Below the pieces are notes generated by a model. The model was given only the letters and a program-made list of their open reading frames with translations, was not told the DNA's origin and made no database searches. The position numbers and the translations under genes are program-made. From contig OZ243972.1 in NCBI GenBank assembly GCA_965214705.1, positions 416,001 to 480,000 on the forward strand: 64,000 nt of DNA, written 5' to 3'. This DNA is from Alphaproteobacteria bacterium. GTDB lineage: Bacteria; Pseudomonadota; Alphaproteobacteria; UBA828. This document shows positions 4,296-11,911 of the stretch, in pieces; the stretch's first letter is position 1, and the number at the start of each line of letters is the position of its first letter.

Positions 4296-5560
4296 GCCAG
4301 CCAAGCCTGCACCGCTGCCTCCAGAGAGAGCATGTTCGGATATCCCGTTCAAGCTGCTTGCCGGGGACGCGTCCGAGGATGATCGCAGCGTCGCTCAACC
4401 GAGCAGCGGCGGCTTGCGCGCCATCCAGTCCCGGAACTGCCGCTCGACCACCGGCCCGGCGTCCGGGCCGAACACCGCCACGAGCAGCGGCCCGAGCTCG
4501 TGCTCCCGGCTCTGCAGTACGAGGTCGTCCAACGTCGTCATGAGCAGCAGCTCGACCGACTGCCGCAGCCGTTCGATCGACCCTCCGGAGGCCGTCGACA
4601 GCATACTCTCGGCCAGGCGGTCCACACGGTCGAGCAGCCGGCGCTGTTCCGCCTCGCTCAGCGCCAGAGCCGGCGCGTTCGCCTGCGCGGGGTCTAGTGT
4701 CCTGATCCATAAGTTCGTATTACTGCATTGTTGATTGAAGCGAGGAGGCTCATTCCGTGGCGAGAACAGCGGTGGACATCATCCTGACAGATGAAGAGCG
4801 CAAGGAGCTGGATCGGCTGAGCCGGAGCCGCAAGTCGTGGCAGGCCTTGGCGCTGAGAGCGCGGATCGTGCTGGCGGCAGCGGACGGTCTGTCCAACAAG
4901 GAGATTTCGGCCCTTTTGGAGGTCACGGAGTTGACCGTCGGCAAGTGGCGCCGCCGCTTCGCCGAAGACCGCCTCGACGGTCTGCATGACGCGCCGCGTT
5001 CGGGCGCGCCCCGGCGCATCGGCGACGACGAGGTTGCCGAGGTCGTTCGCATGACGCTGGAGGAAACACCGCCCGACGCCACCCACTGGAGCCTGCGCTC
5101 GATGGCGCGCGCCACCGGTTACGGCGCCTCGACCATCCATCGCATCTGGCAGGCCTTTTCCCTGCAGCCGCACCGCAGCGAGACCTTCAAGCTGTCGGCG
5201 GACCCGTACTTCGTGGACAAGGTGCGCGACATCGTCGGCCTGTACGTGGACCCGCCGCAGCATGCCATGGTTCCCTGTGTGGACGAGAAGTCCCAGGTTC
5301 AGGCCCTCGACCGCACCCAGCCCTTGCTGCCGCTGCGGCCCGGCCAGGTTGAGCGGCGCACCCATGACTACAAGCGCAACGGCACGACCTCGTTGTTCGC
5401 CGCCCTCGACGTCGCCACCGGCGAGGTCATCGGCAAGTGTTTCCACCGTCACCGAAGCCGGGAGTTCCGCAAGTTCCTGGACCACATCGAGGCCAACGTG
5501 CCCGAGGATCTCGACATCCATATCGTCATGGACAACTACTGTAAGAGGGGCAAATCTTGG

Positions 5561-6231
5561 GAGCGCCAGGCTAACTCTGTCGTGGATAGCCGGTGAAAGT
5601 CCGGTGAAGGGAAGGACTAACGAACCACCCTTGCCTTGAGCCGTGCGTCGGCCTTCGCGAGGAGGCAGGCGAAGCGTCGGTAGAGGTGCGCGTGGGCAGG
5701 ACATTGAGCACCGAAAATGCCGTCATTCGGAGTGCCGAGGCCATCCAGAAGGTCGAAGGCAACACCGGCCGCCCGCTTTCGTGAGGGCCGGCAGGGCTCC
5801 GCGGTGTCCAAGACCCCAGGCACGCGCGTACGTCCACACAGGGGACCTGGGAGGCCTCTTCATCACCCGTGCCTCAGAGTGCGGGTCGTGACGGGAAGGG
5901 TGGATGCCCATAGCCGTCGATGTACGATGGGGAGGAATCTGACTCGGTCGTAGTACCGTTGAAACGGGGGAACAAAGGGGCGTGACAACCTTGGCGGACT
6001 TCGTGGAGGAAAGGACCGGGGCCAACGGGAGATCGGGGACCTGAAGCATGTGCCGGGCACAGAACCGGGTAAGCATGTCACAGGAGGGTCTCCGAACACG
6101 CCGCCGTGCGAGACGTCGCAAGAGCGACGAGAGTGCGCCGGACGTCTGACCGGAGGCAGGAGCCGGATGCCTTAGCGGGCACGTCCGGATCTGCGCGGGG
6201 GGCGCTGGGTAACCAGCGTCCCTACCGCGAA
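5561..6231 (+). ncRNA. ORF-less group II intron (IIB, class E-like)
   Basis: Domain V GAGCCGGATGCCTTAGCGGGCACGTCCGGATCTG (6160-6193), followed by a domain VI ending CCCTACCGCGA. Domain I motifs GGTGAAAGTCC and GAGTGCCGAG..GAAGGCAACAC. DII/III motif AATCTGACTCGGTCGTAGTACCG. No RT ORF. Confidence 0.85.
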
Positions 6232-6278
6232 GATGAAGCGGCGTGGTTCCGGCTTTGAGGTCCGGTTTGGGCAGGACC

Positions 6279-7946
6279 TCAGATGGCCTGCGGAGCGAGC
6301 ACTGGGCCAGCGGTCGGTCGCTGGCGCGCGAGGTCGGGGAGCCAGGGGACACTTTCGGCACCTGGGATGCCCAGGCGGTCACCGAGGTAGTTCCAGAATG
6401 AGATGCCGTGGCGGGCACAGGTCTTCATGTGGGTGAGGAAGGCGTCGCGGCAGGCACGGCCTTGATCCGAGCGGGTTCCGCCCGAGACCTTGCGGCGGAC
6501 GACACAGACGCGCAGGTCGTTCTCGGTACCGTTGGTGTGGGCCGGCACGTCGGGACGGTCGAGCACGGCGAGCAGCTTGTCGCGGTTGGCGAGGGTGCGC
6601 CCGATCTGCTCGTCGAGCAGGCGGTAGCCGGTGCCGGTCCGGAAGGTACGCGCGAAGCTGCGCTCGACGACGGCGCGTCTGCGCGGACTTGGCTGGCGGC
6701 AATAGGCACCGAGCAGCCGGTACGTCCGCCAGATGCCGCCGCGCACCTGATCGACGGCCGCACGGCTCGCGTCGCTCCAGACCGGCAACGTGCGATAGAG
6801 CCTCTCGGCATGGATCCAGCACAGGAACTGGTGCAGGCCGAGGTCGAACTGGCCGGCGTCGTCGCTCAGGATGGCGCTGTCCTCGCGCAGCAGGCCATGG
6901 GCGAACAGACAGCCGAGCCGGGCGCCCTCGGTGGCGAGGAGCCGGGCCCTGGGGGCGTCGATCCCGAGCCCGTCGAGGAACGCCATCCACAGGTCAGGCC
7001 CGTCAAACCGACCACCGGCATGCCCCCTCAACGCGTCAAGCGCCCGACGCGGCATGCTGTGGCTCTCCATGTGCCGGAACGCTTCATCGTTCAGCACGTA
7101 CTCGTCGAGGGCGCCGCACATCGTGTCGAGGAAGCTCAGACGGCTCTTCGACCCCGTCGTTCCGAACCAGCCGAAGCAATCGTTGCCGATCGAGATGCAA
7201 TAGCCGTTGCGCCCTTGATGGCGCGCGCCAGTGTCGTCGACCGAGATCCAGGCCGCCCCCTCAAGACCCGCCTTCAGTATCTCCGCCGCCTCGCCGACGA
7301 ACGGTTCCCTGTTCCCGGTCAGCAGGCGCCGCACCTGACGCTCCGAGATGTCGAGGCCGATCGCATCGAGCAGGGCAGTGATGCGCGGGATCGTGCTCTG
7401 GCCCTGGTGGTAGAGCATCAGCACGAAGCGATGCAGCTCCAGGTTGAAGCCGCCGATCACGCCGTCGGGCAGCTCAGCGACGATGATGCGCCCATCCGGC
7501 GTCACCACGCGCTCGCGCTGAAAAACGACGTTGTGGACTTCGAGTTCCAGCAGTTGGGCGTGATAGTCCTGGTAATCTTTGTGGACCGAGCCCTCGGGCG
7601 CGTCCTCTACGCAGACGACCACGCGCTTCGCGTCCTTGCGGCCCTGCTTGGGGCCTCGCCGCTTCTTCGAGGCGCCCGAAGAGCGCCGGCCTCCCTCCAG
7701 GCCCTTGCCGCCCGAGCCCTTGCCGTCTCCGTCGCCCGCGCCCGGTTTGATATCCGGCTTGCCGGGCAACCTCTTGAGTTGGCGGATCTCGGCCTTGAGC
7801 ATCTCGATCGTCTCGGTGTGCACTGCGACCGTCTCCTTGAGACGCTCGTTCTCGGCACGCAGCTCAAGGATCGTTTCCGCCTGCGCGGCGTTCGTCGCCC
7901 GCAGTTCCTCGATCAACCGAGCCTGGGTTTGAAGCGAATCGACCAT
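6279..7946 (-). CDS. IS66-family transposase (TnpC-like)
   Basis: N-terminal coiled coil, SVDDTGARH, LSDDAGQF, LCWIHAER, HTNGTENDLRVCVVRRKVSGGTRS. Confidence 0.9.
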   Translation of the reverse strand: MVDSLQTQARLIEELRATNAAQAETILELRAENERLKETVAVHTETIEMLKAEIRQLKRLPGKPDIKPGAGDGDGKGSGGKGLEGGRRSSGASKKRRGPKQGRKDAKRVVVCVEDAPEGSVHKDYQDYHAQLLELEVHNVVFQRERVVTPDGRIIVAELPDGVIGGFNLELHRFVLMLYHQGQSTIPRITALLDAIGLDISERQVRRLLTGNREPFVGEAAEILKAGLEGAAWISVDDTGARHQGRNGYCISIGNDCFGWFGTTGSKSRLSFLDTMCGALDEYVLNDEAFRHMESHSMPRRALDALRGHAGGRFDGPDLWMAFLDGLGIDAPRARLLATEGARLGCLFAHGLLREDSAILSDDAGQFDLGLHQFLCWIHAERLYRTLPVWSDASRAAVDQVRGGIWRTYRLLGAYCRQPSPRRRAVVERSFARTFRTGTGYRLLDEQIGRTLANRDKLLAVLDRPDVPAHTNGTENDLRVCVVRRKVSGGTRSDQGRACRDAFLTHMKTCARHGISFWNYLGDRLGIPGAESVPWLPDLARQRPTAGPVLAPQAI

Positions 7947-8196
7947 GGACCCTCCGCGCGCAGGCTGTCCATAAAGCGCGCGAAGTCCAGCGAAAAATGC
8001 GCGCTCAACCCCCTGATCCGGATCGGCAACGCGGTCGCGTCACATGGCCGGGCCCATGGCCGCTGCACCCGGAACTGGAAGCGCGATGGCCAGGAAACGC
8101 TGAAGGTGGCCCGATGCCATCACCAAGGACTACCGTCAGCGCCGGGCGTAACAAACAGGTACCCCCAAGCGACATCACACCAGTTGCGCGCGCTCA

Positions 8197-8485
8197 CCAA
8201 GTCCCCTGTGTGGACGTACGCGCTCACCTGGGGTCTCGGACACCGCGGAGCCCCGCCGCCCTCACGAAAACGGGCGGCCGGTGTTGCCTTCGACCTTCTG
8301 GATGGCCTCGGCACTCCGAATGACGGCATGTTCGGTGCTCGATGTCCTGCCCACGCGCACCTCTACCGACGCTTCGCCTGCCTCCTCGCGAAGGCCGACG
8401 CACGGCTCAAGGCAAGGATGGGTCGTCAGTCCTTCCCTTCACCGGATTTTCACCGGCTGTCCACGACAAAGTTAGGCTGGCGCTC
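8197..8485 (-). ncRNA. Truncated group II intron fragment (domain I only), inverted copy of 5561-~5850
   Basis: Reverse complement starts GAGCGCCAGCCTAAC and matches the left-end intron with scattered substitutions up to ...CACACAGGGGACTTGG. Confidence 0.8.
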
Positions 8486-9536
8486 CCAGGATTTGCCCCT
8501 CTTACCAACTACTCGACGCACAAGACAAAGGAAGTCCGCGCCTGGTTCGCCAAGCGGCCTCGCTGGCATGTCCACTTCACGCCGACCTCGGCGTCGTGGC
8601 TCAACCAGGTGGAGCGGTTCTTCTCCGATCTGACGGAGAAGCAGATCCGTCGCGGGGTTCACCGCTCGACCGTCGAGTTGGAGCAGGCGATCACCGCGTA
8701 CATCGAGGCCGTCAACGAGGACCCCAAGCCGTTCCGCTGGCACAAGTCAGCCGACGAAATCCTGGCTTCCATCAAGCGCTTCTGCCTGAGAACCCTCGAA
8801 CTCGCGCCAGCTCAATCATAGCTATGCGAACTTCGGAATCAGGACACTAGTGTCGTGTCCCACAGATACGCGTAGTATAATGATGACCTCTCAAGCGCCA
8901 GGAGGTCGTCATGCCGCGCGGACGCCAACTCCCGCCACTGGTTCTCGCTGCCGATCAACGGGATCAGTTGGTGACCCTTTCGCAATCGACCTCGATGCCG
9001 CACGGCCTTGTGCAGAGGGCCCGCATGATCCTGGCCTGTGCGGAGGGCCTGACCAACACCGCCGTGGCCGAGCGGCTGGATGTCTCGCTGTCGGCGGTCG
9101 GCAAATGGCGGCGCCGGTTCCTGGAGCAGGGGGTTCAGGGGCTACATGACGAACTTCGCCCGGGACGTCCCCGCAGCTATGGCGACGAGAAGGTGGCCGG
9201 ACTGATCAACCGCGCCCTGCAGAAGAAGCCGGACAACGCCGACGCCTGGAGCGTCCGCCTGATGGCGGAAGCCGAGGGTGTGTCAAAGAGCACCGTGCAA
9301 CGCTGGTTCTCGCTGTTCGGGGTCAAGCCGCACCGGAGCGACACCTTCAAGCTGTCCAGCGATCCGTTCTTGCCGTGAAACAGATTCCGGCGAGGCACGC
9401 GTGGTGACGGTCCAACCCGCGAGTTGTGCGGAGTTGGCTGAGATCGCCGGCGTCGGCGCGGCAGTGACGAGCGGTGGACTTCCCCGATGTGGCCCGAAGC
9501 CGGTCCCGCGTAGCCGACAGGCGTGATGCAGGCTGC

Positions 9537-10799: not shown

Positions 10800-11141
10800 C
10801 ATTTGCGCTCTCGCCACGGCGGCGTACGATCACGCCGTGGCATCGCCACGGTGGAGGCGGGGACAGCGGTCGGAAGGACACGCATCCGCCGAGCGGGTGC
10901 GGTTCGATTTGCCGCGCGTCCACGGCCAAAGGCCGGGTACAATACGGGGTGCGGAGCCGACCGCCGGAAGCAGTTTTGTCATCGGGAACTACGTCACCGA
11001 TATAACGACGCTCACACGTCCCCGCCTCCGCCAACACCCATCCTGACACGGCAGAACCAGTGCAGGCGTGAGAAAAACGTCAGCCCAAGCGCCCCTGTTT
11101 CATGCCACGGGGTGGCTCAGAACCGCGGGGACCATGACTGT
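10800..11141 (-). ncRNA. Candidate IS110 bridge RNA (long 5' non-coding end)
   Basis: About 350-nt hairpin-rich non-coding left end upstream of the recombinase. It contains target-like GACAAA (10975-10980) and donor-like CGGCAAA (10908-10914). Confidence 0.6.
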
Positions 11142-11911
11142 TTTGTCGAGAAGGTTCGGGACTTGACCGGTCTGTACCTGAACCCGCCGGACCACGCGCT
11201 GGTGCTGTGCGTCGATGAAAAGAGCCAGATCCAGGCCCTCGACCGCACCCAGCCCACGCTGCCCATGGGGCTGGGCTACGTCGAGGGCTACACCCATGAT
11301 TACGTCCGTCACGGAACCACGACGCTGTTCGCCGCGCTGGATGTGGCGACCGGCAAGGTGATCGGTAAACGCAGCAAACGCCACCGTCATCAGGAGTTCC
11401 TCGCCTTCCTGCGGATCATCGACCGGGAAACGCCGCCCGAACTCGACATCCACCTTGTCCTGGACAACTATGCCACCCACAAGCATCCCAAGGTCTGCGC
11501 TTGGCTGGCCAAGCGACCTCGCTACCATCTTCACTTCACGCCCACCTCCGCCTCCTGGCTCAACCAAGTGGAACGCTGGCTCGGCCTGATCGGCCAACGC
11601 GCCATCAAGCGCGGCTCGTTCCACAGCGTCCCCCAGTTGGTCGAGACCATCGAGACCTTCATCGCCAGCTACAACCAATCCGCAGCCCCTTTCGTGTGGG
11701 TCGCAACGGCCGAGTCGATCTTCGAGAAACTCCAACGCCTATCCACGCGTATTTGCGGGACAGCACACTAGCTGCACGTTCAGCCCCGCCGAGATCACGT
11801 GGTCGTTGATGGACACGTCCCGGCTCTCCGCGACCTCGCGGATCCGCTCCCACTCCGATTCCAGGCACGAGATCGCAATCCGCGCCCGGGGCGTCGCGGG
11901 CTGCTCCGCCA

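Follow-up and report, generated by a model that had tools for sequence, protein, structure and literature searches.

The stretch of DNA considered here (hereafter the window) comprises 64,000 nucleotides from an Alphaproteobacteria bacterium (NCBI GenBank assembly GCA_965214705.1, contig OZ243972.1, positions 416,001 to 480,000 of the forward strand), and its positions 5541-8505 are an IS66-like insertion sequence (IS) in which both ends contain group II intron sequence. The arrangement is very probably the outcome of a group II intron without an open reading frame (ORF) having homed repeatedly into the terminal repeats of this IS, and would thus represent nested mobile DNA rather than a new type of chimera.

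The element is bordered on both sides by the 8-bp target duplication CAACTACT, its tips reading GTAAGAGGGG... from position 5541 and ...CCCCTCTTAC up to position 8505. Its ends are inverted copies of one another over some 310 bp, made up of two blocks (5541-5788 against 8258-8505, 248 nt at 96% identity, then 5786-5850 against 8197-8261, 65 nt at 89%), and in both arms the group II intron sequence begins exactly 20 bp from the tip. An initial annotation, made from the letters of the window alone, had already described these limits, the duplication, the tips, the imperfect inverted ends and the 20-bp offset, all of which hold when checked by sequence and alignment.

The body of the IS is present in five genome copies, called here A (the copy in the window), B, C, D and a truncated E, which between them provide nine IS ends, all beginning GTAAGNGGGGCAAATYYTGG. 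Three of these nine are empty (the left ends of C, D and E, where GTAAGAGGGGCAAATCCTGG runs directly into GATGAAGCGG), three hold the full intron (the left ends of A and B and the right end of D, the last with two introns head to tail), and three hold a 289-nt fragment from the 5' part of the intron (the right ends of A, B and C); in all six occupied ends the intron sequence starts exactly after base 20 of the tip and reads inward. The full intron itself, 671 nt in length, has five copies at four loci in the genome according to BLAST, identical at 671 of 671 positions, and its limits are exact, given the identity of the four other copies and the fact that empty IS ends join ...CAAATCCTGG straight to GATGAAGCGG. 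The initial annotation had named copies lacking the intron ends as what would speak for separate local insertions, and such copies do exist as regards the full intron (the left ends of C, D and E), while the right-end fragment is retained in A, B and C.

Copies B and C agree at 1962 of 1962 nt of the body and 289 of 289 nt of the right-end fragment (2251 nt in total) and each has its own 8-bp duplication (CATCTCTC and GATTGCAA respectively), the left intron being present in B only. Copies A and B differ at 22 positions in the body, and yet their introns are identical throughout; had the intron been inherited since the two copies diverged, 7.5 differences would be expected, and the probability of finding none is 5e-4. 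Because B matches C apart from the intron, and because the introns of A and B are identical despite the divergence of the bodies around them, it appears that the left intron was gained separately in A and in B, and recently. One could suppose instead that the left intron was ancestral to A, B and C and moved with the IS, C (like D and E) having lost it precisely and gene conversion having kept the remaining copies identical. The occurrence of the intron at the same position in A and B would fit such a history, and precise loss by recombination with spliced cDNA is known in principle, but the identity of B and C over 2251 nt would require the loss to have been both extremely recent and exact, the probability just quoted is that of inheritance since the split between A and B, and identical introns also occur at an unrelated IS91-like site and in the tandem at the right end of D, which retrohoming explains and inheritance does not. 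This history is therefore considered highly unlikely.

The IS91-like site just mentioned is occupied by the fifth intron copy, which lies in sense orientation within an IS91-like transposase gene (C3:1789188-1789858). The site reads GGGGCAGAATCTGG/G (the slash marking the point of insertion) and falls within the conserved motif H-T-W-G-Q-N-L/G-Q-H; it is occupied in one of its 11 genome copies, the ten others being empty.

As to how these sites would be recognised, the loop of exon-binding site 1 (EBS1) is complementary at all six positions to the tip at the right end of D (UUCUGG; the tandem end) and at five of six to the other tips and to the IS91-like site, while the EBS1 loops of five intron lineages in this genome, in pairings read by hand, each complement, and covary with, the last six bases of their own upstream exon. 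At position +1 all four kinds of site have G, one of these being the intron's own first base, so that a second copy can enter between a tip and an intron already resident there, producing a tandem; the head-to-tail pair at the right end of copy D occupies C1:1859845-1861186, 20 bp inside the tip. Since the IS repeat is inverted, there should be two homing sites per IS, one on each strand, with the intron always reading inward, and the inverted repeats of about 310 bp would then have arisen incidentally, through insertion of two introns into an inverted target, rather than being a feature of the IS. Of the two readings that the initial annotation had put forward, it is thus the homing of an intron to the IS terminal repeat that is favoured, by the existence of intron-free copies, by the identical introns in differing IS copies and by the complementarity of EBS1 to the tip.

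Within the window as a whole, only two Rfam matches reach gathering level, and both are full-length matches to RF02005 (group-II-D1D4-6; model positions 1-225 of 225, gathering score 49), one in each arm of the IS: 5596-5816 on the plus strand with 168.1 bits, and 8231-8450 on the minus strand with 154.7 bits. The helices of domains V and VI find support in an alignment of 14 related intron 3' ends, in which 93.3% of the cells are paired and 11 of 26 pairs have changed on both sides, a level reached by none of 500 shuffles, controls in which the helices were slid giving 40-52% pairing. Nucleotides 1-547 and 588-671 of the intron align with relatives in the same genome that encode a reverse transcriptase (RT), the missing part being approximately 1.25 kb of domain IV, in which the RT gene lies. 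A minimum free energy fold (-312.4 kcal/mol, z = -3.1 from 20 shuffles only) contains the EBS1, domain V and domain VI hairpins, but was not relied on for the overall architecture. The complete ORF-less intron of the initial annotation, and its inverted, diverged domain I fragment upstream of the transposase gene, both stand on this evidence.

That fragment, the relic in the right arm, is 94.5% identical to the active intron, differing from it by 16 substitutions and one single-base deletion in copy A and by 11 substitutions and the same deletion in B and C. Copies A, B and C have it in common, with three target duplications (CAACTACT, CATCTCTC and GATTGCAA), whereas in copy D the corresponding site has full introns and, after them, some 30 bp of IS sequence absent from A-C. 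Because D keeps both, a single deletion seems to have taken the 3' 380 nt of the intron along with about 30 bp of IS DNA; and because A, B and C share the relic while their duplications differ, and B equals C, the IS must have transposed at least twice after the truncation, once very recently. On this comparison of copies the right arm is evidently an older, truncated intron insertion, which DNA transposition later brought to three sites or more. The suggestion in the initial annotation that the whole unit had transposed together is consequently right for the truncated right fragment (three copies with three duplications) and wrong for the left intron, gained separately in A and B.

The second reading in the initial annotation, namely that the ribozyme had been co-opted as a structural or regulatory end, would make the intron sequence a built-in part of the IS, functioning either as long repeats for transposition or as a ribozyme-derived leader regulating the transposase, with the unit moving as one. 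It is true that A, B and C, with their different duplications, share the right-end fragment, that this lies upstream of the transposase gene and in the same sense, that it still scores 154.7 bits against RF02005 and that its EBS1 is unchanged. Against this, relatives with ordinary 22-bp repeats and good duplications exist in three other genome records, copy D has an intact transposase ORF without the relic, and the full left intron is missing from three of the five left ends. Furthermore, A differs from B and C at 7 of 289 positions in the relic as compared with 22 of 1961 in the IS body (odds ratio 2.2, p = 0.087); the relic thus shows no sign of extra constraint, and on these counts evolves at least as fast as the body. 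A scan of 5400-8650 for promoters and terminators gave 0 and 0 sites, but this is a weak and uninformative test. Co-option in this sense is regarded as quite improbable. There is also a slender chance that the relic is not inert: it is fixed in a transposing IS lineage, its intact EBS1 and EBS2 would be able to pair with the tip of the IS itself, and in copies that also have the full left intron the two form the 310-bp inverted repeat, so that it could conceivably serve as a leader with a regulatory role, divert intron RTs as a decoy, or supply one arm of a long double-stranded hairpin, of RNA or DNA, that tunes transposition. On this view, more generally, a retroelement that is not autonomous might gain another means of spreading when IS copies laden with it move by DNA transposition.

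That the long inverted ends arose by DNA rearrangement (as an inverted duplication, or through recombination between intron-bearing IS copies) is scarcely credible, since, although copy D with its missing target duplication indicates that rearrangements occur at these elements, the arms differ in age (relic and left intron are 94.5% identical in copy A, active copies 100%), they start exactly between bases 20 and 21 of each tip as would be expected of a sequence-specific homing site present in both orientations, and D has full introns at the right-end site.

If homing of the intron is accepted, the sequence of events can be reconstructed as follows. The IS proper has 22-bp terminal repeats that start with GTAAG, a core some 2.0-2.07 kb in size, a single transposase of 555 aa and an 8-bp duplication. 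Its outer 20 bp followed by G would have constituted the homing site, recognised through EBS1-IBS1 pairing (IBS denoting an intron-binding site), a short EBS2 pairing and the +1 G. An earlier intron would have entered the right end, where deletion of intron nucleotides ~291-671 and about 30 bp of the IS would have left a dead domain I relic; as insertion between bases 20 and 21 spares the outer repeat, and as the intron starts with GA like the IS at that point, the IS could have continued to transpose, spreading the relic. The full intron at the left end would be a recent arrival by way of reverse splicing and reverse transcription, with the RT probably supplied in trans by an RT-encoding intron of the same Rfam type in this genome. 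In the window, the IS66-like element has itself struck an IS630-type element, giving with the intron three nested mobile elements.

Among the 59 matches in the genome to a related intron RT, nine are full-length and uninterrupted by stops, with 65-100% identity to the query RT, and the resident RTs fall into three groups, at 100%, about 69% and about 65% identity; these related RTs match Pfam RVT_1, give no match to an endonuclease domain, and belong to introns that match the same model RF02005. Mobilisation is presumably by a resident RT of another intron acting in trans. The search for a cognate RT that the initial annotation had proposed yielded nine intact RT ORFs and no RT-encoding intron with the same EBS1.

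Several RT introns of the RF02005 type in this genome are themselves curious in being about 2 kb too long (for example C2:398565-402499, C3:92354-96288, C3:26520-30377 and C1:2612724-2616479). Between domain I and their own RT gene they have a second RT ORF, 32% identical to their own and present in about 17 genome copies, and they may represent one intron nested in another; in one of them (L020) Rfam found only the domain I of the outer intron and no second ribozyme, which leaves the nesting unconfirmed.

All this said, a number of points weigh against repeated homing as set out here and should be considered together. Splicing and retromobility are deduced from the identity of the copies and the structure of the sites (five identical copies, four loci, intact exon junctions), and so indirectly. 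The domain V/VI model RF00029 gives 6158-6231 a score of just 32.8 bits (E 6.5e-4, with 3.25 kb searched), short of the 40 needed for gathering level, so that the covariance models that the initial annotation had asked for support domain I in both arms and fall short of the threshold for domains V and VI. The intron ends are non-canonical, the 5' end being GAGCG in place of GUGYG and the 3' end ...GCGAA where AY is canonical, and in domain V the pair next to the catalytic triad, usually G·U, is G·A. The G·A (columns 26 and 53 of the alignment A2, window positions 6162 and 6189), in which the G of the AGC triad is opposite an A and the Rfam consensus shows a G·U wobble, is present in 13 of 14 introns of the lineage, the remaining one (G035b) having U, and the 5' GAGCG is found also in multi-copy RT-encoding relatives; as such relatives share both, the odd 5' end and the G·A are read here as features of the lineage. 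The predicted EBS2 pairing is short, with four contiguous pairs. As for the helper, an RT-encoding parent with the same EBS1 was found neither in this genome nor in 40 related genomes nor in two exact-pattern scans of metagenome contigs, and in domain I the identity to the nearest RT-encoding introns is just 66-82% (to those in the same genome about 66-72%). Copy D (C1:1859825-1863187; L004), whose body is 95% identical to those of A-C, has no matching target duplication, which suggests that its history includes a rearrangement. Finally, a strand preference relative to replication would be expected of introns whose RT has no endonuclease. All five full-length introns lie on the plus strand of their contigs, and the one occupied and two empty IS91-type sites on contig C3 fit insertion at the lagging-strand template if cumulative GC skew marks the origin and terminus there, but on contig C1 the skew is weak and does not run monotonically, and no simple replication-strand model accommodates the sites.

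A separate observation on C1 is that in the genome-wide analysis its cumulative GC skew is irregular, with a minimum at 2.02 Mb and no return to zero; contamination of the assembly is reported as 8.7%. The replicon structure, or the assembly, may be unusual.

Turning to the classification of the IS, the transposase ORF is intact in copies A-D. It scores 42.6 bits against Pfam DDE_Tnp_IS66 (PF03050; cutoff 23.1), with the match confined to profile positions 147-281 of 284, i.e. the C-terminal half, and 83.2 bits against the NCBIfam IS66 model NF033517, below the cutoff of 180. Traits of the IS66 family according to ISfinder are an 8-bp target duplication and terminal inverted repeats beginning GTAA, and canonical members have accessory genes tnpA and tnpB upstream of tnpC; the present element has one long ORF, with no ORFs resembling tnpA or tnpB, which agrees with the single-ORF subgroup alone. 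The single-ORF members of IS66 that it resembles, which we take to be those that ISfinder names the ISBst12-like group, have in common with it the DDE_Tnp_IS66 domain, the 8-bp duplication and a repeat start of GTAAG; it departs from them in that its Pfam match is limited to the C-terminal half and its NCBIfam score is under the cutoff. Judged by these comparisons the element is best classed as IS66-like, a distant, single-ORF relative rather than a canonical IS66. Of the label used in the initial annotation, the intactness of the transposase (555 aa) holds, and "IS66-type" is to be understood in this looser sense.

Three relatives of the IS without introns, 2073 bp in length and 85-87% identical, with plain 22-bp inverted repeats, were found in a genome of the same genus (G004; L021/L051) and at two further loci (L052 and L053), their 8-bp duplications being TGGCCATG, ATTGGGAA and CTTGGTAC respectively. 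A more distant relative (L054; 72% protein identity, 2518 bp) has clean tips and a passenger gene, with no matching flanking duplication. Matching 8-bp duplications are accordingly present at copies A, B and C and at L021/L051, L052 and L053, and absent at D and L054; the domain I model RF02005 gave no Rfam match at L021/L051 (G004), L052, L053 or L054. The passenger ORF of L054 (L054:3157-4001), situated between tip and transposase gene, has a DPPY motif and resembles a DNA methyltransferase, and about 20 similar copies (~73% DNA identity) occur in the genome under study.

Public sequencing runs were available as contigs, which inform on presence and on junctions and not on expression. In one run (X1) the 20-nt tip is followed immediately by position 6232 on a contig of 1751 nt, i.e. 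there is an empty left end, while the unique middle of the intron (5821-6187) is covered in all four of the runs examined, from four studies, with 0-3 differences; two RNA runs contain 0.04 of the words. A distant DNA search of a plasmid collection with tip plus intron returned 3634 records, none with query coverage of 80% or more and none above 90% identity, these being ordinary related introns with ltrA. Patterns for the tip-intron junction and for the EBS1 region each gave 0 matches in metagenome contigs, although, with exact matching only, this is weak evidence of rarity. No related intron was found at an IS66-like tip among seven loci of seven other genomes, four copies in G004 and four other lineages in the present genome.

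Group II introns that target insertion sequences are by no means unprecedented, and there is a published precedent, of which the initial annotation did not know, for one occupying IS terminal repeats. In Sinorhizobium meliloti GR4, passages of the paper by Martinez-Rodriguez et al. (2014; PMC4615759) describe all seven copies of RmInt2 as lying in the inverted repeats of ISRm17, with two opposite-strand sites per IS; all copies are identical, four EBS2 pairs suffice, and, as EBS3 is able to pair with the first G of the intron, copies also come to lie head to tail. A 2018 review (PMC5894124) agrees on RmInt2 and ISRm17. As far as those passages go, the two systems share the targeting of both terminal repeats, identical copies, a relaxed EBS2 of 4 nt, head-to-tail doubles and an endonuclease-free RT (here in related introns), and they differ in that RmInt2 encodes its own class D RT, whereas the present intron is ORF-less and the related RTs here have no class D C-terminal motif (the ORFs having been read by eye). 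ISRm17 is filed as ISNCY/ISDol1 (PMC10194956), while the present IS matches the Pfam IS66 DDE domain, and the passages covered of the RmInt2 paper (PMC4615759) report no truncated relic fixed in an IS lineage. A Sinorhizobium IS found by tblastn (L036; 2239 bp, repeats GTACGTGGGGCAAATCGGGTGGC, transposase 41% identical to the one here) was considered as a candidate for ISRm17 itself, but no link was found, and the group II models gave no match in L036, L037 or L038.

[quoted passage not shown] As those passages have it, the TeI3 introns are close relatives of their drivers, and targeting of IS termini is not among what is described, whereas the nearest RT introns of the genome studied here have only the domain I identity of about 66-72% given above. 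By analogy, then, the present case can be seen as combining IS-repeat homing of the RmInt2 type with mobilisation of an ORF-less intron in trans. What is distinct about it is the type of IS, the missing ORF, the lack of a class D C-terminal motif in the related RTs, and the relic moving along with the IS.

The site of RmInt1 lies inside ISRm2011-2 and not in its terminal repeats, and is therefore taken as one site per IS. In S. meliloti this IS, of the IS630 family, is the canonical target of RmInt1, the spread of the intron being tied to IS copy number, and the case shares with the present one a bacterial group II intron having its natural homing site in an IS (PMC5894124). IStrons likewise show a ribozyme physically associated with a DNA transposon (PMC4227781). 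In them a group I intron, which carries the transposase gene, is united with an IS200/605- or IS607-type transposase in a single unit, and splicing makes the insertion harmless. Identity with an IStron was rejected: in the present case the ribozyme is of group II and situated in the IS ends, the transposase is a DDE enzyme of the IS66 kind, each element is found without the other, many IS copies having no intron, and the IS would stay in a transcript after splicing. A literature search for which subscription journals and supplements were outside the scope produced no paper on an ORF-less group II intron in IS66-type repeats, nor on an intron relic propagated by an IS.

No new mechanism is opened up by these observations, and their main use is probably as a clean natural time series of an intron invading an IS: three layers of selfish DNA (IS630-type, IS66-like and group II intron) are present, and the empty, single, tandem and truncated relic stages can all be seen. 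They also suggest that targeting of IS inverted repeats, as in RmInt2 and ISRm17, extends to another type of IS and to a non-autonomous intron, and they show that 289 nt of dead ribozyme in one end need not stop an IS from moving. For annotators, the practical lesson is to look for intron insertions in any IS with unusually long inverted repeats before naming a new IS architecture. The features of the element and its surroundings are collected in Table 1.

Table 1. Positions within the window of the IS66-like element, its intron sequences and the interrupted IS630-type gene.
Position	Strand	Feature	Evidence or remark
4757-5540	+	5' part of IS630-type transposase gene, cut by the IS66-like element	Pfam HTH_32, HTH_29, DDE_3
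5533-5540	.	Target-site duplication CAACTACT, left copy	
5541-5560	+	Left IS tip, outer 20 bp of terminal inverted repeat; doubles as intron 5' exon with IBS2 (GGCA) and IBS1 (UCUUGG)	End alignments; 22-bp repeat of clean relatives GTAAGWGGGGCAAATTCTGGGG
5561-6231	+	Complete ORF-less group II intron, 671 nt, probable recent insertion	Identical genome copies; RF02005 168 bits
5718-5721	+	Candidate EBS2 core (UGCC), would pair with tip GGCA	Internal-loop position in RF02005 alignment
5745-5750	+	EBS1 (CCAGAA), hairpin loop, pairs with last 6 nt of IS tip (UYYUGG)	Homologous loops of 5 intron lineages; minimum free energy fold
6160-6191	+	Domain V, catalytic hairpin, AGC triad at 6161-6163	RF00029 32.8 bits; covariation
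6194-6229	+	Domain VI, bulged branch-point A at 6224, 7 nt before 3' splice site	RF00029; covariation
6232-8196	-	IS body	5 genome copies, mutual identity 94.7-100%
6279-7946	-	IS66-like DDE transposase gene, 555 aa, N-terminal coiled coil, intact	Pfam DDE_Tnp_IS66
8197-8485	-	Relic of older intron insertion, intron nt 1-290 only (domain I, without domains V/VI)	RF02005 154.7 bits
8486-8505	-	Right IS tip, outer 20 bp of inverted repeat	
8506-8513	.	Target-site duplication CAACTACT, right copy	
8506-8821	+	3' part of the same IS630-type transposase gene	Frame continues across the removed IS

As regards the IS630-type gene into which the whole element is inserted, contigs from two of the public runs (X6 and X8) pass from position 5540 directly to the sequence 3' of 8513, and since they join both flanks without the IS, an uninterrupted form of the gene exists elsewhere. 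Further fragments of IS630-type transposase genes lie just downstream in the window (8911-9378 and ~10900-11771), so that the region can be regarded as a cluster of nested, broken mobile elements.

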